Positions 1,500 to 8,695 of a stretch of 26,930 bases of DNA are shown one piece after another. A model generated the notes under the pieces. That model worked only from the letters and a program-made list of their open reading frames with translations, had not been told where the DNA came from and did not search any database. The DNA lies in NCBI GenBank assembly GCA_965648905.1, contig CBFGIT010000033.1:1-26930 (forward strand). Direction: 5' to 3'. How positions within the stretch are numbered: the first letter of the stretch is position 1; each line of letters opens with the position of its first letter. The DNA comes from a candidate division WOR-3 bacterium. Its GTDB lineage: Bacteria > Hydrothermota > Tepidihabitantia > Tepidihabitantales > Tepidihabitantaceae. The translations under genes and the position numbers were made by a program.

Positions 1500-2573
1500 C
1501 TATCCTGACGTTCGTTGCCTGCTGCCCGGACCTTTGCCCGGCTTGCGGCCGAGTGCGGCCAGGGTGGCGAGCAGGTTCTCGTGAAACTGCTCCGCGGTGT
1601 CGGTGACCTCGGCCTTGCCCGGGTAGATTTCGTACAGCCTCCGGTACTTGAGTGGGGTCAGGTTCGGCATCCAGACGTTGGCGCCGCGCTCGAGGCCCAG
1701 CTCGCGGCCGTGCGTCCTGTTGACCGTGGCCAGGGCCGTGGTTGAGGGTATGTTGGCATCCGGGCAGACCAGCCGCGTCAGAGCGACCACCTTGGTTGTC
1801 ATCAGGTCAGTGGCCGGCACCTGATTCGGTATTCGGAATTCGTCATTCGATATTCTCCCCAATGGTGTGTCCGGATGCGGGATGAACGGCCCGCAGCCGA
1901 CCATTTCGAGGTCAAGGTCGTGGAATAGCATGATGTCGTCAGCAAGGGATTCGAAGGTCTGGCCGGGAATTCCGACCATGACGCCGGAACCGATTTCGTA
2001 GCCGATGACACGCGCCTGCTTGAGCAGTCCGATACGGTGTCTGGACTGACTCGCCGGGTGTATGCGTGCGAACAGCGCCGGGTCTGATGTCTCGTGTTTG
2101 AGCAGGTACCGGTCAGCGCCGGCTTCGCGCCAGGCAGCCAGTTCCGCCACCGTGCGTTCGCCGAGTGACAGCGTGACCGCGAGCGGGGTCTCGGTCTTGA
2201 TACGGCGAACCAGCCGCACAATGAACTCGCATGATAGACCCGGGTCTTCGCCGGACTGGAGCACGACCGTGCCGTATTCGAGTTTCACGGCCAGTCGGGC
2301 GCAGTCCATGACTTCTTCTTCGTTCATCCGGTAGCGTTCGATTCTGCGGCTGCCCCGGATGCCGCAGTAGAGACACTCACGCGAGCAGTAGTTTGACAGT
2401 TCAACAAGACCGCGCAGATGGACCTCGTCACCAACGTGCTCCCTGCGTACCCGGTCCGCCTCAGCCCAAAGCAGTTCAAGCCTGGTTTCTTCGGTTTCCC
2501 GAAGCCAGGCCAGAACGGTCGAGCGGTTCTCCAAGTGCAGGCCGGCAGGCGCTACAGCCTGGGAGCTAGGCAT
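1500..2573 (-). CDS. hydE: [FeFe]-hydrogenase H-cluster radical SAM maturase HydE
   Basis: CSRECLYC radical SAM motif, LQSGED, GADRYLLKHET, GPFIPHPDTP, GANVWMPNLTP..YRRLYEIYPGK. Start moved to ATG at 2573, which overlaps the hydF stop and has a purine-rich SD. Confidence 0.93.
   Translation of the reverse strand: MPSSQAVAPAGLHLENRSTVLAWLRETEETRLELLWAEADRVRREHVGDEVHLRGLVELSNYCSRECLYCGIRGSRRIERYRMNEEEVMDCARLAVKLEYGTVVLQSGEDPGLSCEFIVRLVRRIKTETPLAVTLSLGERTVAELAAWREAGADRYLLKHETSDPALFARIHPASQSRHRIGLLKQARVIGYEIGSGVMVGIPGQTFESLADDIMLFHDLDLEMVGCGPFIPHPDTPLGRISNDEFRIPNQVPATDLMTTKVVALTRLVCPDANIPSTTALATVNRTHGRELGLERGANVWMPNLTPLKYRRLYEIYPGKAEVTDTAEQFHENLLATLAALGRKPGKGPGSRQRTSG
1821..1855. repeat. Five degenerate heptamers (NNNATTC) inside hydE
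   Basis: CTGATTC GGTATTC GGAATTC GTCATTC GATATTC; encodes RISNDEFRIPNQ. Confidence 0.75.
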
Positions 2574-3831
2574 TTTCCCTCTGTCTGGTAATTGGAGTCT
2601 GGGTCTTGGCCATTTCCTCGTGGTAGATGGCCAGCGCGGCCGGGAACGGTTCGAGCGCCCGCTCAAAGATGCCGAGCGAGTACGCGATGGTCAGACCGTA
2701 GTTGGTGATGGGTACGCCTTGTTCCCGGCACCGGGCCACGCGGTTCAGAACTGCCCGGCGATTGGTCATGCACGCGCCGCAATGAATCACCAGCTTGTAC
2801 GGGGACAGGTCTTCGGGGAAGTCGTGGCCCTGGTACGTCACGAATTCAATCCTGCCGCCGACGTACTGGGTCAGCCAGCGCGGTATCTTGACCCGGCCGA
2901 TGTCGTCACCGATAGGATGGTGGGAACAGCTCTCGGCCACGAGCACCTTGTCTTTGGGCCGGAGCCGCTCGATTGCCATTGCACCACGGACCATTTCCGT
3001 CAGGTCGCCCTTGAATCGCGCAAAGAGAATCGAGAATGACGTCAGCTTCACGTCGCGCGGCGTGTCACCGGCAACCTTCAGGAACGCCTGCGAATCGGTC
3101 ACGACGATGTCCGGCTTGCGGTTCAGGCGCAGCAGCGCGTCCCGCAGTTCCCGTTCCTTCGCGACCATGCAGTAGGCGTCGCGGTCAAGGATGTCACGGA
3201 TGGTCTGCACCTGCGGCTGGATAAGCCGGCCCTTGGGCGCTTCCTTATCAATGGGCACAACCAGCACCGCCAGGCCACCCGCGGGCAGGAGGTCGCCGAT
3301 GATGGTCGGCGGGTTGACGAAGTCCTCAGGTGCGGCCGCAATCAGGGCCTCGCGCAGGGCCAGGATGCCTTCGGCCCGGGCCGCTGCGGTTTCGACCGTG
3401 CGCACGCCTGAGTCGCGCAGACTCCGTGTCAGCTCCGCGGTTGGCGCGCCGAGGTCGTTCTTGTTGAACACCACCACAATCGGGACCTTGCGCCGCCGCA
3501 GCTCTTCAAGCATCGCCTGTTCGAAATCGCCCCACTGGCCGGCTTCGGCCACAATCACGCCCATGTCGGTCCGCTCGACGACTCGGCGCGTCTTCTCGAC
3601 CCGCATCCCGCCGAGAGCGCCGATGTCGTCGATCCCGGCGGTATCGATGAAAAGCACCGGCCCGAGAGGCAGCAATTCCATCGGCTTCTCGACCGGGTCG
3701 GTGGTCGTGCCGGGTGTGTCCGAGACAATCGACACCTGCTGCCGCGTCAACGCGTTGAGAAGCGACGACTTGCCGACATTGCGCCGGCCGAAGATGCCGA
3801 TGTGCAGGCGCAGGCCCTTGGGCGTCTTCAT
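2566..3831 (-). CDS. hydF: [FeFe]-hydrogenase maturation GTPase HydF
   Basis: GRRNVGKSS P-loop, GTTTDPV, DTAG, NKND, APKGRLIQPQVQ, TDSQ, and the Fe-S ligand motif CSHH...HCGAC. Confidence 0.96.
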   Translation of the reverse strand: MKTPKGLRLHIGIFGRRNVGKSSLLNALTRQQVSIVSDTPGTTTDPVEKPMELLPLGPVLFIDTAGIDDIGALGGMRVEKTRRVVERTDMGVIVAEAGQWGDFEQAMLEELRRRKVPIVVVFNKNDLGAPTAELTRSLRDSGVRTVETAAARAEGILALREALIAAAPEDFVNPPTIIGDLLPAGGLAVLVVPIDKEAPKGRLIQPQVQTIRDILDRDAYCMVAKERELRDALLRLNRKPDIVVTDSQAFLKVAGDTPRDVKLTSFSILFARFKGDLTEMVRGAMAIERLRPKDKVLVAESCSHHPIGDDIGRVKIPRWLTQYVGGRIEFVTYQGHDFPEDLSPYKLVIHCGACMTNRRAVLNRVARCREQGVPITNYGLTIAYSLGIFERALEPFPAALAIYHEEMAKTQTPITRQRENA

Positions 3832-5516
3832 TCTTGCCCCTCACTCGAAGCCTCAGTCCCTCGACTTCTTGATTCCTCTCTGCTTCCCAGTCGGTTCACC
3901 GCCTCGGGCGACACCAGCTCGTCAAACCGCTCAACCGGCACGCCGTACTTCTCGGCCGCCAGTTCGCGCAGCGGTCGGCCGGTTGCCTGAAACTCCTTGA
4001 CCAGTTCCTCGGCTCGTTCGTACCCAATCTCGCCCACGAGTGCAGTGACCGTGGCCGTGGTCGATTCGACGAACCGGCGGCAGCGGTCTACGTTCGCCCG
4101 GATTCCTGTCACGCAATGCAGGCGCAGGATGCGACAGGCATTGTGCATCAATTCCAGCTCCTCGAGCAGGGCATAGGCGATGAGCGGCATGAACTGGTTT
4201 AGCTCGAGGTTGCCACCAGCTGCGGCCATGGCGATGACCGCGTCGTACCCGAAGACCATCATTGCCGCCTGTGCCACAGCCTCGGGGATAACTGGGTTCA
4301 CCTTGCCCGGCATGATAGTCGAGCCTGCCTGACGCTCAGGCAGGTAGATTTCGTTCAGTCCTGCCTCCGGGCCGGACGACAGCAGCCGCAGGTCGTTCGT
4401 CACCTTGATGAGGTTGGCAGCACAGGCCTTCATCGTTCCCGACACCTCGACAAGGGCGTCGGCATTCTGCGTCGCTTCCACGAGGTTCTCGGCCCGGCCG
4501 AGCCCGATGCCGGTGATGTCACGCAGATGGTCAACGACGGCGAAGATGTAGCTGCGCGGCGCGCCTACGCCGGTGCCGATGGCGGTGCCGCCGAGGTTGA
4601 CGGTGCGCAGCCGCTCCTCGCACTTGAATACCCGCCACCGATCGCGGCCGAACGCCTCGGCATACGCACCCATCTCGCGGCCGAGTGTGGTAAGGACTGC
4701 GTCCTGCATCTCAGTCCGGCCGACTTTGACCACACCGGCGAATTCCCGTTCCTTGAGCTGGAACGCCTCCTGCAGGGCGACCAGCTCCTCTTCGAGCTCG
4801 CGCAACGATTTGACCGCGGCGATGCGGAGCGCGGTCGGGTAGGTATCGTTCGTTGACTGGTGCCGGTTCAGGTCATCGTGGGGTGAGACCCGCGCATAAT
4901 GCCCGAGCGGTTCTCCCAGTATCTGGAGTGCCCGGTTGGCGAGTACTTCGTTGACGTTCATGTTCGTCGAGGTTCCGGCTCCGCCCTGCAGGGCGTCGAC
5001 CAGCACCTGGCCGTCAAACCGGCCTTCCATCATCTCCCGGCACGCCTGCTCGATAGCGTCCGCCCGCTCCGGGTCATTGTGCCAGATGCCGAGCTCGCGG
5101 TTGGCCCGGGCACAGGCCAGTTTGACTGCGCCGAACGCGTGAACCAGGAGGATGTGCATGGGCCGGTTCGCGAGCGGGAAGTTCTCGATTGCCCGCACCG
5201 TGTGGATGCCGTAGAGCGCGCCGGCCGGCACTTCGCGTTCACCCAGGAGGTCCTTCTCGGTGCGCGTCTTGGCGCCGGCGCGGAAACGGGCGAACTCCTC
5301 GCGCACAAGCCCGGCCAGATGCGGCCCGACGTTCTCGCCGAAGACCGCGTACTCGTTGTCTGAGACGACCTGCTCGGCCGGTTCGAGCCGTTCCTCCCCG
5401 ACCGACCAGAGGAAGTCCCAGCGCCGACCGCTGGCACGGCAGAGCCAGAGTTTGGCCGGCTGCCCGTGCACCAGCCGCGATAGCGCTTCCCTAAGAGCAG
5501 AGGTCTCGTTCATCAC
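3828..5516 (-). CDS. aspA: Aspartate ammonia-lyase (fumarase/aspartase superfamily) with ~83-aa N-terminal extension
   Basis: RTEKDLLGE..VP...YGIHTVRA.ENF, QGGAGTSTNMNVNEV, QSTNDTYPTA, GGTAIGTG, GSTIMPGKVNP. Stop overlaps the hydF start (ATGA). Confidence 0.9.
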   Translation of the reverse strand: MMNETSALREALSRLVHGQPAKLWLCRASGRRWDFLWSVGEERLEPAEQVVSDNEYAVFGENVGPHLAGLVREEFARFRAGAKTRTEKDLLGEREVPAGALYGIHTVRAIENFPLANRPMHILLVHAFGAVKLACARANRELGIWHNDPERADAIEQACREMMEGRFDGQVLVDALQGGAGTSTNMNVNEVLANRALQILGEPLGHYARVSPHDDLNRHQSTNDTYPTALRIAAVKSLRELEEELVALQEAFQLKEREFAGVVKVGRTEMQDAVLTTLGREMGAYAEAFGRDRWRVFKCEERLRTVNLGGTAIGTGVGAPRSYIFAVVDHLRDITGIGLGRAENLVEATQNADALVEVSGTMKACAANLIKVTNDLRLLSSGPEAGLNEIYLPERQAGSTIMPGKVNPVIPEAVAQAAMMVFGYDAVIAMAAAGGNLELNQFMPLIAYALLEELELMHNACRILRLHCVTGIRANVDRCRRFVESTTATVTALVGEIGYERAEELVKEFQATGRPLRELAAEKYGVPVERFDELVSPEAVNRLGSREESRSRGTEASSEGQE

Positions 5517-6909
5517 TCGTCCTTATCTTTTCGACACGCTCTCGAACTTGATTCCGTGTCTTCTCGTTCTCGATCCTCTCAAGCTCGCGGTCGATGAGTC
5601 CGAATCCCGCTGCCTGCGTCTCCGGGCTGGCGTAGTCGGTGAGGTACTCGGCTAGGGTGGTGAGGGCATTGGGCGTACAGTAGCGTTTGATGAACCCGGG
5701 AATCGAGAACTCCATGAAGTGCTCGCCGGTCCGACCCAGCCGGTAGCAGGAAGTGCACCAGCTCGGGACGTAGCCGTCCTCGATGAGCTCGCGCACGACC
5801 ACATCCAGGGGCCGGGTATCGTGCAGCTCGAACTGCTCGCGGGTCAGTTCCTGGCACGCGCCGTTTCTGCACTCCTGGTACGCGCCCAGCTCGATGCGCG
5901 AGCCGGCGTCAATCTGCGATACGCCGAGGCGTAACGCCTCACGCCGCAGTTCCGGTGTTTCTCGGGCCGTGAGAATCAGGCCGGTATAGGGCACGGCCAG
6001 GCGCAGTACCGCGATGACCTTCTTGAAGTCCTCGTCCGAGACAAAGTGCGAGCGGTCGAGTTCAACGTTTGATGCCACATTGACACGCGGAAAACTGATG
6101 GTGTGAGGCCCCACGCCCCAGCGTTCTTCGAGATGGATGGTGTGCGCCACAAGACCCATCACCTCGAACCGCCAGTCAGCCAGACCGAACAGAGCGCCGA
6201 TGCCGACGTCATCCACTCCGCCCTGTATGGCGCGGTCGTGGCTGGTGAGGCGCCAGAGGTAGTCGCCCTTGCGCGTGTTCTCGGGATGCACCCGGCGATA
6301 GGTGTCGTGATGGTAAGTCTCCTGGAACACCTGATAGGTACCGATGCCGGCTTGCCTCATGGTGCGATAGCCTTCGACATCGAGCGGGGCCGCGTTGATG
6401 TTCACGCGTCGGATTTCACCTCGGCCGACCTTGATTGAGTAGACCAGCCGAACCACGCGGGCCATCTCCTCGGCCGAGTAGTCCGGGTGCTCGCCCCAGA
6501 CAAGTATCAGTCGCTTGTGCCCCTGGTTCTCAAGTGCGACCAGCTCGTCGTGCAGCTCCTGGTCGGACAGGGTCTTGCGCACGGCGTCGCGGTTGGTGCA
6601 CCGAAACCCGCAATAGGCGCAGTTGTTCACACATCGGTTGCCGACATAGAGCGGGGCAAAGAGCACGATGCGGTTGCCGTAGACGTTCTGCTTGAGGGTG
6701 TGTGCTGCCTCGAACACCTCAGACCACTGCTCTTTGTCCGTGACTGCCAGCAGACTTGCGACCTCGTCCGGTTCAAGCCGCCGCTTGGCGAGCGACTTGG
6801 CCAGCACCTCGCGCACGCGCGATGAGTCGGGCTTGGCCGCAGCCAGCGTTTCCTCGATGCGCCGGTCGTCGATGAAGTCCACTGCCTTTGGCTCAGCCGC
6901 GATGCTCAT
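5491..6909 (-). CDS. hydG: [FeFe]-hydrogenase H-cluster radical SAM maturase HydG
   Basis: FAPLY..N.CVNNCAYC, EIRRVNIN, FQETYH, GPHTISFPR, and the C-terminal CX2CX22C motif (CTSC...C). Confidence 0.96.
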   Translation of the reverse strand: MSIAAEPKAVDFIDDRRIEETLAAAKPDSSRVREVLAKSLAKRRLEPDEVASLLAVTDKEQWSEVFEAAHTLKQNVYGNRIVLFAPLYVGNRCVNNCAYCGFRCTNRDAVRKTLSDQELHDELVALENQGHKRLILVWGEHPDYSAEEMARVVRLVYSIKVGRGEIRRVNINAAPLDVEGYRTMRQAGIGTYQVFQETYHHDTYRRVHPENTRKGDYLWRLTSHDRAIQGGVDDVGIGALFGLADWRFEVMGLVAHTIHLEERWGVGPHTISFPRVNVASNVELDRSHFVSDEDFKKVIAVLRLAVPYTGLILTARETPELRREALRLGVSQIDAGSRIELGAYQECRNGACQELTREQFELHDTRPLDVVVRELIEDGYVPSWCTSCYRLGRTGEHFMEFSIPGFIKRYCTPNALTTLAEYLTDYASPETQAAGFGLIDRELERIENEKTRNQVRERVEKIRTSDERDLCS

Positions 6910-7232
6910 GCTATCTCCTCGCGGTCTGCACTGCTGCCTTCTGCATTCTGCCTTCTGATTTCTGACTTCATCCCGTTCGCCTCTTTCTTCCTCAGCGCCG
7001 CCTTCACGCTGACGCCGGGTATCGCGCCCAGCTTCCCGGTCAGCGCGCCAATTTCGTCGTTCGTGCCGTCGACGATGACGGCGACGACCGACAGGTGCTT
7101 CTCGCGGTAGGGGATGCCCATGCGGCCGACGACGATGGCTGCGTACTCACTCAACACGGCGTTCACTCTGGGCGCGGCTTCGAGCCGGTTCTCCACGAAA
7201 ACAGCCACGACACCTAATCTCTGCTTTAGCAT
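6906..7232 (-). CDS. TM1266-family putative iron-only hydrogenase system regulator (ACT-like fold)
   Basis: RLGVVAVFVE...VNAVLSEY...IVVGRMGIPY...IGALTGKLGAIPGVSVK; first gene of the hyd operon; repeat-derived C-terminal tail. Confidence 0.9.
   Translation of the reverse strand: MLKQRLGVVAVFVENRLEAAPRVNAVLSEYAAIVVGRMGIPYREKHLSVVAVIVDGTNDEIGALTGKLGAIPGVSVKAALRKKEANGMKSEIRRQNAEGSSADREEIA
6934..6968. repeat. Five heptamers (CTGNNTT) forming the C-terminal tail of the TM1266-family gene
   Basis: CTGCCTT CTGCATT CTGCCTT CTGATTT CTGACTT. Confidence 0.75.
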
Positions 7233-7535
7233 GTCTTCTCCGATACTTCACCACAAGAGATACCGCGTTCCGGGCGAATTCAGAGGCGAGAAGCTAGAGT
7301 GCAGAATGCAGAATCCCGGGACCTCCGACTTCCGGCCCCTGCAATCTGGCTTCTGACCTCGTCTGTTGCCACACGCGGTCTCCGTGTCCTACTGGTAGGG
7401 TTCTGTGCTTCGGAAGCTAAGGGCGAAACCGCCCCTTCGAGTTGGGCCTTTTCAGCCCTCTTCGTCGGAACAAGGCTTCCGGCTTGGTTCCTTCAGGCCC
7501 GGACGGACAGTAGCCATCCGAGTCCTGTCAGACGA
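7233..7535 (-). ncRNA. Candidate structured cis-regulatory leader RNA of the hyd maturation operon (family not recognised)
   Basis: ~300 nt between promoter and first ATG. Manual pairing gives 4-5 consecutive hairpins, a 7-bp closing helix, a 6-bp loop pseudoknot and a competing downstream helix. Confidence 0.6.
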
Positions 7536-7538
7536 TGG

Positions 7539-7567
7539 ATGATAGTATGGAAAGCGCTATGTGTCAA
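7539..7567 (-). promoter_or_regulatory. sigma70-type promoter of the hyd operon
   Basis: TTGACA (7567-7562), 17-nt spacer, TATCAT (7544-7539). Confidence 0.8.
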
Positions 7568-7656
7568 CCGGTGCGGGACGGGATTTGCCCCGAGGTGCGA
7601 CCGGCGCACGGCGCGGGCTTGCGGCCTGAAGCCGCGGCTGTGCCTGCAGGCGCCGT

Positions 7657-7956
7657 CTAGGCCTGAGCCTTGCGGTCGCGGGCTACGGCCGCTTCGGGCT
7701 GCTCGACCCGAGACCGGTCTCCGATGCCGATGAGCAGCGCCGATACCATGATGTCCTCGTCGAGGTCGTCCCAGTGGAGTCCGGTGCCGCCGCCGCTGAT
7801 GACACAGCGCTGCCGCTGGCCCGGAGTCGCTCTCAGCAGACGTGGGAAGTAGGCCAATGGGACGCCCAACCGCCTCCCGTCCGCCAAGTCTACCCACATC
7901 GTGTCGACGTCAAAGGTGACGCGGATGGCCAGTGGTTCAACTGCCGAAGTGCTCAT
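7657..7956 (-). CDS. DUF2442 domain protein (putative antitoxin)
   Basis: V.LADGR.LGVPLAYFPRLLRATP.QR....I..GG.GLHWDDLDEDI. Start at ATG 7956 overlaps the upstream DUF4160 gene. Confidence 0.88.
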   Translation of the reverse strand: MSTSAVEPLAIRVTFDVDTMWVDLADGRRLGVPLAYFPRLLRATPGQRQRCVISGGGTGLHWDDLDEDIMVSALLIGIGDRSRVEQPEAAVARDRKAQA

Positions 7957-8182
7957 TCCAGAACCTCTCAATCTCTGCCTTACGTTCAGCCGCGACATCC
8001 AGCAGTTCGCGGAGCTCATGAGCCGCGAGTCCGTACGAGCTTGCGACCTCAGGCACCGGTTCGAGCCAGAACTTCGCTACCGCGTTCTCCCGTCGCACGT
8101 GCACGTGCAGGGGCTCGCGTGGCACTCCTTCGTTGGAATAGAAGAAGAACCGGTAGCCCTTGTACCTGAAGATGACGGGCAC
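7937..8182 (-). CDS. DUF4160 domain protein (putative toxin of a DUF4160/DUF2442 pair)
   Basis: MPVIFRYKGYRFFFYSNEG..EPLHVHV....AKFWL...W.EHFG. Confidence 0.9.
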   Translation of the reverse strand: MPVIFRYKGYRFFFYSNEGVPREPLHVHVRRENAVAKFWLEPVPEVASSYGLAAHELRELLDVAAERKAEIERFWNEHFGS

Positions 8183-8188
8183 GCTGGG

Positions 8189-8217
8189 ATTCTAGAACTG
8201 GCAAGGGCCGATGTCAA
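8189..8217 (-). promoter_or_regulatory. sigma70-type promoter, leaderless geometry, for the DUF4160 gene
   Basis: TTGACA, 17 nt, TAGAAT, 6 nt, GTG start; no SD. Confidence 0.75.
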
Positions 8218-8326
8218 GTGACCTGAGCTTGCGCTTGGGCTAGCATGAGGCTTGCGGCCGCGTCGACAGGCGCGTACGCTCGGTTGAATTCACAGTGCCC
8301 GAGCACGGCAGATTCGCTGATCTTCG

Positions 8327-8695
8327 CTAGCCCAACGAAGTCGGGATTAGGATGACATCGATGTCCTCCAATTCACCGGATTCCGTAAGGACCTTGGATC
8401 CGTACTCCGGCATCACGGCAGAGTAGATTTCCTCTATGTCGTAACTCTCCTCAGAGTCGAGGAAGTACAGAACTCCTTTGGTGTACCCGCAGGAGGAATC
8501 GTACTTCAAGATCGCATCCTCTGAATACGCATATTCGTAGCAGTACCGTGTCTGCACATACAGACTAGTGCCATCCACCTGATACAGGCCATCCGCGTTG
8601 AGAGTGACGGTGACTCTGTAGACTTCAGCGGGAGCAGGTGTCGCCAGGACCGCAATCGCTGCTGCTAGGGCAAGTTCGCGTGGGCGCGTGTTCAT
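8327..8695 (-). CDS. Small secreted acidic, Tyr-rich hypothetical protein
   Basis: AAAGGAGG SD before ATG 8695; signal peptide ending APA|E; YVQTRYCYEYAYSEDAIL. Confidence 0.7.
   Translation of the reverse strand: MNTRPRELALAAAIAVLATPAPAEVYRVTVTLNADGLYQVDGTSLYVQTRYCYEYAYSEDAILKYDSSCGYTKGVLYFLDSEESYDIEEIYSAVMPEYGSKVLTESGELEDIDVILIPTSLG

Follow-up and report, generated by a model that had tools for sequence, protein, structure and literature searches.

A conserved, putatively structured leader RNA upstream of the TM1266-hydG-aspA-hydF operon of a candidate division WOR-3 bacterium

PyrR regulates the pyr operon of Bacillus subtilis by attenuation, and TRAP (trp leader) and HutP (hut operon) are also RNA-binding attenuation proteins. 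The SAM-II and preQ1-II riboswitches are pseudoknots that sequester the Shine-Dalgarno (SD) sequence. To our knowledge, the control of when cells build the H-cluster of [FeFe]-hydrogenase is essentially unknown, and TM1266, a protein of solved structure and unknown function, is annotated only as a "putative regulator." Here we describe the leader of a TM1266-hydG-aspA-hydF operon on the minus strand of contig CBFGIT010000033.1 (assembly GCA_965648905.1) from a candidate division WOR-3 bacterium of the phylum Hydrothermota. The stretch analyzed, called the window below, comprises 26,930 nt, and all features lie on its minus strand unless stated otherwise. Sequence comparison showed that the operon is preceded by a conserved 5' leader RNA of about 130 bases with a predicted structure (7533-7401), called the core below.

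The locus resembles each of the known systems in part. As with PyrR, a small regulator gene stands first in its own operon behind a leader with a conserved hairpin, and in Bacillota relatives a terminator competes with an antiterminator that overlaps the hairpin flank. Unlike PyrR, TM1266 is an ACT/NikR-C-like protein of about 85 amino acids, there was no match to an Rfam PyrR family, and the window leader has no terminator and would act on translation. The leader shares with TRAP and HutP targets the presence of repeated short purine motifs (YYGAG/RAGG), and its candidate reader would likewise be small, oligomeric, and ligand sensing (PDB entry 2nzc has four chains). However, in TM1266 leaders the repeats stand on either side of a covarying helix, not as single-stranded triplets at even spacing. 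Similar to SAM-II and preQ1-II, the loop of a hairpin can base pair with a CU-rich 3' tail whose other potential partner is the ribosome-binding site (RBS), but no model of these riboswitches matched, and in the window 170 nt separate the tail from the SD sequence.

The leader core is an uncatalogued RNA that belongs to no Rfam 15 family. At the gathering score, Rfam 15 gave no match anywhere in the window. When positions 7150-7700 were searched with E values of up to 10, the best subthreshold matches had E values of 5.5 to 9.9, which is chance level. Across 20 related TM1266 loci, the sole Rfam match was to tRNA, with no riboswitch and no PyrR family. An earlier annotation of the window made from the letters alone (the sequence-only reading) had called the RNA unrecognized, and this description held, with nothing at the gathering score and only E values of at least 5 below it. 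No RNA element preceding TM1266 or hyd maturase genes was described in the literature searched, which excluded supplements and subscription journals. Riboswitches treated in PMC3543383 are unrelated to the TM1266 leader.

TM1266 homologues were found in 17 of the 44 genomes of the window's family (Tepidihabitantaceae; f1) and in 41 of the 272 genomes of the phylum. All 17 family genomes carry the same set of core elements directly after the promoter. Together with 9 metagenome loci, these 17 loci gave 26 aligned f1-type leaders. The core begins with the element GUCUGAC (7533-7527), which is present in all 26 leaders and contains a CTGA that is invariant in A1, a MAFFT alignment of the 17 family sequences. 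It is followed by hairpin P2 (7526-7495), which varies in sequence and length. In the window, P2 has 12 bp, a bulged A, and the loop CUACUGU. This is the longest P2 of the family, and the loop sequence differs in every relative. A GRAGGA stretch leads into hairpin P3 (7491-7467), in which GGAAC (7491-7487) pairs with GUUCC (7471-7467), an inner AAG pairs with CUU, and the loop contains GGAAGC (7480-7475). The P3 arms vary by genus while their complementarity is kept (GGAAC/GUUCC, GGACC/GGUCC, GGAGC/GUUCC, and GGAGCCG/CGGUUCC). The P3 duplex was favorable in 26 of 26 leaders when each sequence was fitted separately; pairs could not be counted by column, since neither the MAFFT nor the Infernal alignment keeps the 3' arm in register across genera (the shift is one column).

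Next in the core is the P4 domain (7464-7438), composed of an outer helix (CGA, 7464-7462, with UCG, 7440-7438) and an inner helix (GGGCU, 7458-7454, with GGCCC, 7448-7444) closed by the loop GAAAA. The two helices are separated by a 3-by-3 internal loop that is conserved in the family. Its consensus is NAG/UGA, and in the window it reads AGA/AAC if P4b is drawn as GGGCU/GGCCC or GAG/CAA in the family register. The P4b tip ranges from 3 nt to inserted repeats of about 100 nt, the long inserts being found in genus g10. Hairpin 4, GGGCG-GUUU-CGCCC (7435-7421), occurs in genera g1, g9, and g7 but is lacking in g10. Next comes a CU-rich tail, GCUUCCGA (7417-7410), which can pair with the P3 loop or the SD region and reads GCUUC(C/A) across the family (7417-7412 in the window). 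The sequence-only reading had drawn four local hairpins, namely, a 13-bp hairpin at 7527-7494, GGAAC/GUUCC, GGGCU-GAAAA-GGCCC, and GGGCG-GUUU-CGCCC. All four are present in the window and are conserved in relatives.

Two covariance models of the core were built. R1 was made from 11 sequences of genus g10, and R2 is the R1 alignment with the P3 loop:tail helix in place of P3. With R1, each of the 17 family loci had a single full-length match, located upstream of TM1266. Of 80 metagenome TM1266 loci (the best 80 of 439 relatives), 9 were also matched, and these were the nine of highest protein identity; none of 14 loci from families f15 and f16 of the same phylum was matched. When the 44 whole genomes of the family were searched with R2, 15 had a match at an E value of ≤0.01, the best match in each being at the TM1266 leader, and the 27 family genomes without TM1266 had no match. 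With R1 and R2, loci of genus g10 score 97 to 167 bits and those of other genera score 18 to 48 bits. In the window, P2, P3, P4a/P4b, and the loop:tail complementarity are all readable. An R2 match at G001:C11 (26.9 bits) was taken as false, since it lies inside an aminotransferase-like open reading frame (ORF).

Covariation was counted over 28 pairs in the 25 nonwindow leaders aligned to R2. Standard pairs made up 91.3% of cells versus 83.8% in shuffled alignments (0 of 500 shuffles as high), a level that fitting the alignment to R2 inflates. Changes on both sides were seen at 15 of the 28 pairs versus 6.7 in shuffles, and when partners were slid as a control, pairing did not exceed 49.5%. 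For P2 (helix 1), 91.5% of cells were paired and three pairs had changed on both sides (e.g., columns 9-32, with GC 19 times and AU 4 times). P4 (helix 4) has 10 pairs, of which 7 had changed on both sides, and 90.9% of cells were paired. Three features are independent of model fitting: positions of P4a and P4b flip among GC, CG, AU, and UA, large inserts are found exactly at the P2 and P4b tips, and a G.U pair closes P4b (columns 74-177) in 24 of 25 sequences, where the other strand would read C.A. The kept G.U pair, the flipping P4 pairs, and the confinement of inserts to the tips indicate that the core is an RNA on the sense strand. The conservation that the sequence-only reading had anticipated among TM1266-operon leaders was thus found for the 5' part (7533-7401), the helices of which covary.

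The P3 loop also has a distant partner. GGAAGC (7480-7475) is complementary to the tail GCUUCC (7417-7412) over 6 bp, and this loop:tail pairing (helix 3) was paired in 93.5% of cells in the 25 leaders. The loop variants GGAGC and GAGGC pair with an unchanged tail via G.U. Both sides have changed in L084 (GGAGC with GCUCU), and in G033 the loop GAAGCAU pairs with AUGUUUC. In genus g10, the pairing is extended by UCAGA:UCUGA and UUCCC:GGGAA. This would allow everything from the P3 loop to the 3' arm of P3 to pair continuously with the tail, enclosing P4, in a fold that excludes P3. Both P3 (segment 1 with 2) and the alternative (2 with 3) are possible in 26 of 26 leaders. Since these competing helices are conserved, the core is switch-like, as the sequence-only reading had proposed from alternative pairings. 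That reading had placed the switch in an aptamer with an expression platform, an arrangement that did not survive; the conserved long-range pairing is instead that of the P3 loop (7480-7475) with the tail (7417-7412). As a whole, the 321-nt leader folds modestly better than shuffled sequences, with a minimum free energy (MFE) of -128.6 kcal/mol and a z score of -2.5 (2 of 100 shuffles were equally good). In MFE folds of the window, the tail UUCCGA (7415-7410) pairs with the RBS UCGGAG (7243-7238).

A simpler form of the element was found outside the family. Upstream regions of TM1266 homologues were collected from 80 metagenome loci and 80 genome loci (the best 80 of about 470), including Clostridia, Riflebacteria, Lentisphaeria, and others. 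Many of these leaders contain a compact element, CUGA-N4-AAGG..(Y)CUGA-N4-AAAGG, which in most cases is followed by an intrinsic terminator, and 45 of 154 upstream regions gave a match in a profile search. In A6, a plain MAFFT alignment of 23 distinct leaders made without structure fitting, the two N4 spacers form a covarying helix. Columns 17-38 read UA 14 times, CG 7 times, and UG 2 times, with no unpaired sequence, and columns 18-37 read GC 11 times, AU 6 times, GU and UA 2 times each, and UG once. Overall, 87.6% of A6 cells were paired versus 71.5% in shuffles, with a covariation score of 0.548 versus 0.230 (0 of 500 shuffles as high). R3, a covariance model of this general hairpin built from A6, gave 39 matches in 98 loci. 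In each of five named Bacillota genomes, its best whole-genome match was the TM1266 leader (38 to 48 bits).

Within the window's phylum, R3 also matched three f15 genomes, in each case correctly placed at the TM1266 leader (22 to 24 bits). The helix there, GGAC:GUCC around AAG/UGA, is spelled as in P4 of G009 and other f1 genomes. Positions 7468-7432 of the window (CCGA-CGA-AGA-GGGCU..GGCCC-AAC-UCG-AAGGGG) match the general layout YYGA-helix-RA-GGG..CCY-RA-helix-AAGGGG. P4 and its flanks are therefore probably a homologue of the general hairpin (CUGA-helix-A-AGG..CCU-GA-helix-AAAGG), which precedes TM1266-family genes in many phyla, in a local, GC-rich, elaborated form, and P2, P3, hairpin 4, and the tail would be additions of the GC-rich f1 family. 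Compared with the general hairpin, the f1 form has the same gene position and the same layout (YYGA, outer helix, internal loop of purines and GA, G-rich:C-rich inner helix, and a 3' flank rich in purines) and adds P2, P3, the loop:tail pairing, and hairpin 4, and the window has no terminator. The link between the two forms is indirect and runs through architecture and the f15 intermediates, because R3 misses f1 and R1 misses f15 and f16. Weak R3 matches need support from their context, since comparable scores occur inside AT-rich coding regions. Three such matches were taken as false, one in a coding region (G073:C12, 26.3 bits) and two inside ORFs (L261 and L262).

The element accompanies TM1266. 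All 26 f1-type loci and all 5 Bacillota genomes have the two together. At 35 loci, the gene behind TM1266 was hydG (17), aspA (3), hydE (2), a gene for an SsuA-like ABC binding protein (4), or unassigned (9), and in f16 and some Clostridia (L145-type loci) the motif lies between hydA and TM1266. Given these varied following genes and the position between hydA and TM1266, the element tracks TM1266 and not one downstream gene. Three genomes of the phylum, G168, G091, and G264, are HydF positive and TM1266 negative. R2 gave no match in their hyd loci, and their best R3 matches were at most 22.6 bits, with no convincing motif. In L198, L203, L210, and L241 (Bacillota), TM1266 and its leader motif are followed by a gene for an SsuA/NMT1-like ABC substrate-binding protein, with no hyd maturase. 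The TM1266 module is therefore not confined to hydrogenase maturation. The protein is small (about 85 amino acids) and ACT/NikR-C-like and has no DNA-binding domain; PDB entry 2nzc, with four chains, was the sole match in a structure search.

The best explanation overall, which we advance tentatively, is that the leader is a cis-regulatory RNA read by the TM1266 protein. The core itself is probably a cis-regulator of the operon. TM1266, which the sequence-only reading had listed among possible effectors, is a serious candidate; it would bind the leader, probably with a small ligand, and shut off its own operon, a step that we consider possible but somewhat short of an even chance. It is favored as the reader because the element is near symmetric, has a fixed position, is independent of the downstream gene, and was not found in the three TM1266-negative genomes. 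In Bacillota, the hairpin is followed by an intrinsic terminator, the 5' arm of which can pair instead with the 3' purine flank of the hairpin to form an antiterminator; f16 relatives likewise show a terminator/antiterminator alternative. In f15 and Riflebacteria, the 3' purine flank is the SD sequence itself. Because this flank is either an antiterminator strand or an SD sequence, a protein binding the hairpin and flank would turn expression off. In the window, the CU-rich segments 7471-7467 and 7417-7410 would compete for three SD-like purine tracts and the real SD sequence (7243-7238), and control would be at translation initiation, since there is no terminator there.

Extended to the whole family, this reading is more tentative still. 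TM1266 proteins may form a new class of ligand-sensing RNA-binding attenuation regulators, in which an oligomer reads a near-symmetric hairpin. With similar reserve, the class could be taken to span Bacillota, Riflebacteria, Lentisphaeria, and the window's phylum, with a regulon of hydG, hydE, hydF, aspA, and an ABC importer. The window would then represent an elaborated, GC-rich form in which the loop:tail pairing acts on translation and not on termination. The window adds a divergent, elaborated, terminator-less leader form from an uncultured GC-rich lineage. The leader could found a new RNA family, and TM1266 a new class of RNA-binding regulators in hydrogen metabolism; engineered expression of hydrogenases could also gain a natural control element from it.

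Several observations weigh against a leader read by TM1266 or against the place of the window in it. We know of no RNA binding by TM1266. The window is the weakest member of its own family, with 13.0 bits for R1 (E = 0.036) and 13.1 bits for R2 (E = 0.0073); both matches span the whole model and are correctly located. In the whole-genome R2 search, the window and G004 were missed. The 3' strand of the P4 internal loop reads UGA in 22 of 26 leaders, and the window, with CAA, is off consensus. With filters off, R3 scored no higher than 3.4 and 2.2 bits on the window leader, neither of which is significant, and none of 11 f1 loci was matched by R3 at an E value of ≤1. Alignment A5 was fitted to the model, and six of its non-g10 rows pair the P3 loop with the hairpin 4 loop and not with the downstream GCUUCC. 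The partner of the SD sequence in MFE folds of the 26 leaders was heterogeneous, lying in the tail region in about 7 to 8 of them. For this reason, an anti-SD role of the tail can be proposed for the window only and is not a family rule. Finally, Clostridium neonatale (G274:C2) has a second copy of the general hairpin with a terminator directly before hydF (L259:1501-1556; R3, 27.2 bits), with no TM1266 adjacent. This copy fits a riboswitch and a trans-acting protein equally.

A true riboswitch is the strongest alternative, although we regard it as somewhat unlikely. The RNA would bind a small molecule or metal linked to H-cluster assembly, such as Fe2+, an amino acid, S-adenosylmethionine, or a by-product, and TM1266 would be merely the first regulated gene, e.g., a metal- or ligand-binding helper. 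Conserved unpaired nucleotides in the internal loop and flanks, covarying helices, and tips of variable length would all suit an aptamer, and relatives have terminator/antiterminator or SD-overlapping platforms. The C. neonatale copy before hydF without TM1266 is consistent with such an RNA. So is the resemblance of TM1266 to the metal-binding domain of NikR, which we take from the family description, 2nzc being the only structure matched. However, the motif is bound to TM1266 whatever gene follows, ABC transporter operons included, and it was not found in the three HydF-positive, TM1266-negative genomes. Its minimal forms are also very small and near symmetric, with the flank CUGA-N4-AAGG occurring twice, which better suits a dimeric protein. 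No similarity to an Rfam riboswitch was seen in the window or the 20 related loci.

A structured leader that does not switch is improbable. It would be a stabilizing 5' structure, a processing site, or the source of a leader-derived small RNA. Consistent with this, there were no terminator-like sites in the window between 6800 and 8400, leader included, no consistent SD-sequestering partner emerged across the 26 leaders, and relatives accommodate repeat hairpins in the stretch from the core to the SD sequence. Regulation is favored instead by the way the element goes exactly with a single gene family in several phyla, by the mutually exclusive pairings kept in 26 of 26 leaders, and by the clear terminator/antiterminator designs of the Bacillota relatives.

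Control could also act on DNA, through an operator near the start site. The promoter is a sigma-70-like site, TTGACA-17-TATCAT (7567-7539), that matches at 11 of 12 positions. It lies 307 nt from the ATG at 7232, in agreement with the sequence-only reading, which had placed it about 300 nt upstream. Two sites of this grade were found in the surrounding 1.6 kb (6800-8400) versus 0.3 expected, and the leaders of relatives have a promoter of the same layout at the same place. The transcript start is predicted to be near 7536-7532. The 17-nt spacer (CATAG.GCTTT.CATA..) is common to the window and genus g10 loci (L034, L039, L042, and others) and is not shared by G001; an operator or an extension of the promoter may lie in it. 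In the f15 loci L068, L075, L076, and L078, a palindrome, TTGTGA..TCACAA, immediately precedes the leader element, where transcription is predicted to start. It is also present in L117, L119, L120, L215-L217, and L221 (Riflebacteria and others), and it may represent CRP/FNR-like half-sites or an RNA hairpin. The conserved spacer and the TGTGA..TCACA palindrome in f15 and Riflebacteria leaders would suit an operator. DNA-level control is nonetheless very unlikely as the explanation of the core, in which compensatory changes keep helices spanning up to 130 nt, 24 of 25 sequences retain a G.U pair that the opposite strand would carry as C.A, and large inserts fall exactly at hairpin tips.

The 3' half of the leader (7233-7400) is not conserved. 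In relatives it is absent or replaced, and it is repeat derived. In the window it contains a small hairpin (7400-7388), a long hairpin made of 7-base repeat units (22-nt arms at 7360-7339 and 7304-7283, 82% complementary), and an outer inverted repeat (7382-7373 and 7268-7259; 10 nt, 90% complementary). The 335-nt stretch at 7233-7567 was compared as DNA with 61 related genomes, 11 of which gave matches. The 5' part had one match only, in G001, a genome of the same genus (leader positions 69-156, 81% identity). The remaining matches, in 10 further genomes and at several spots in the window's own genome, fell at leader positions of about 195-304. G001 has a TM1266 orthologue with 80% identity over 83 residues that starts about 14 to 26 nt after the conserved core, and the 3' half is absent entirely. 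L079, the closest metagenome relative (82% protein identity), has a different 3' half made of other 7-base units. In lake water DNA contigs (two runs) from a close relative, positions 7455-7499 are identical letter for letter and 7510-7580 are also kept, while 156 other letters stand in place of 7212-7454 and 88 letters have been swapped for the P2 tip (7500-7509).

These comparisons bear on the architecture that the sequence-only reading had drawn around the hairpins. Its enclosing helix P1 (UCGUCUG, 7535-7529, with CAGACGA, 7365-7359) is complementary, but its 3' strand lies in the nonconserved half. The pseudoknot of CUACUG (7513-7508) with CAGUAG (7394-7389) is likewise complementary in the window, but the P2 loop is variable and its partner is not conserved. 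The second helix (ACCGCGU, 7379-7373, with ACGCGGU, 7268-7262) is present and appears in the MFE fold, but it belongs to the repeat-derived, nonconserved segment. A P1-enclosed four-hairpin aptamer with the CUACUG:CAGUAG pseudoknot and the 7379/7268 helix as expression platform is therefore scarcely credible: every complementarity exists in the window, but the 3' partners are absent in G001, different in L079, and replaced in the lake water contigs, the 3' segment comes from a dispersed 7-base repeat, and the P2 loop sequence is not conserved.

In a sensitive blastn search of the window's own genome, dozens of matches to the leader were found, all of them at leader positions 168-332, and tandem arrays were seen on C14, C1, and C9. 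In these arrays, 7-base units of the TGCAGAA type follow one another. They are intergenic (G000, C14:2600-2800 and 3350-3850, C1:113694-114324, and C9:71293-71522), with units of the GCAGAAG, GCAGAAT, GCTAGAA, and GGCGAAA kinds and, in part, a 93-nt superperiod. In genus g10, hairpins are filled by the related units TTAGCAG and TTAGGAG, the P4b tip of the leader included, and the heptamer satellite is family wide. The 3' 168 nt of the leader thus appear to be no more than a bridge between the core and the SD sequence, formed by a repeat-derived hairpin, and in the MFE folds of the window the repeat hairpin forms the bridge across which the tail reaches the RBS. The window clearly illustrates how repeats can be inserted into a leader, and the comparison separates the functional third of its 300 nt from the part that is repeat-derived filler. 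Comparable elements are the short tandem heptanucleotide repeats (STRR) of cyanobacteria and REP-type palindromic elements. As with these, the 3' half consists of inverted 7-base arrays that form a hairpin and are dispersed in intergenic DNA of the window's genome and its relatives. The unit sequences differ, being TGCAGAA-like in the window and TTAGCAG-like in g10.

The operon (2566-7232) begins with the TM1266-family gene (6906-7232; TIGR03959, 106 bits; PF21699, 108.8 bits), the start codon of which (7232-7230) is preceded by the SD sequence GGAG (7241-7238). It continues with hydG (5491-6909; TIGR03955, 500 bits), a gene for aspartate ammonia-lyase (aspA; 3828-5516; NF008909, 623 bits), and hydF (2566-3831; TIGR03918, 562 bits). 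The matches to TIGR03959, TIGR03955, and TIGR03918 bear out the identification, made in the sequence-only reading, of a TM1266-led operon for [FeFe]-hydrogenase maturation. Aspartase within hyd operons has been described as an ammonium source for the dithiomethylamine bridge (PMC11736057). Three ORFs that overlap the leader, 7299-7733 (plus strand), 7493-7897 (minus strand), and 7114-7356 (plus strand), matched no Pfam family. No public sequencing run shared more than 0.07 of the sampled window words. The single RNA run compared, as contigs only, covers 6985-7134 within the TM1266 gene, and the leader lies outside this coverage.

The TM1266 protein of the window has 108 amino acids, with a charged C-terminal tail of about 25 amino acids that is found neither in the 2nzc homologue (86 amino acids) nor in G001 (92 amino acids). 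In genomes G147-G154 (family f31 of the phylum), there are two adjacent TM1266-family matches each, in tandem and about 150 to 170 nt apart. At G065:C53:7675-8049 (L047/L048), the TM1266 homologue is in two pieces, covering residues 3-45 and 38-103, which could reflect a frameshift or an assembly error. On its upstream side, the leader adjoins a DUF2442 gene (7657-8019), which has its own strong promoter-like site, TTGACA-17-TAGAAT (8189-8217), matching at 11 of 12 positions.

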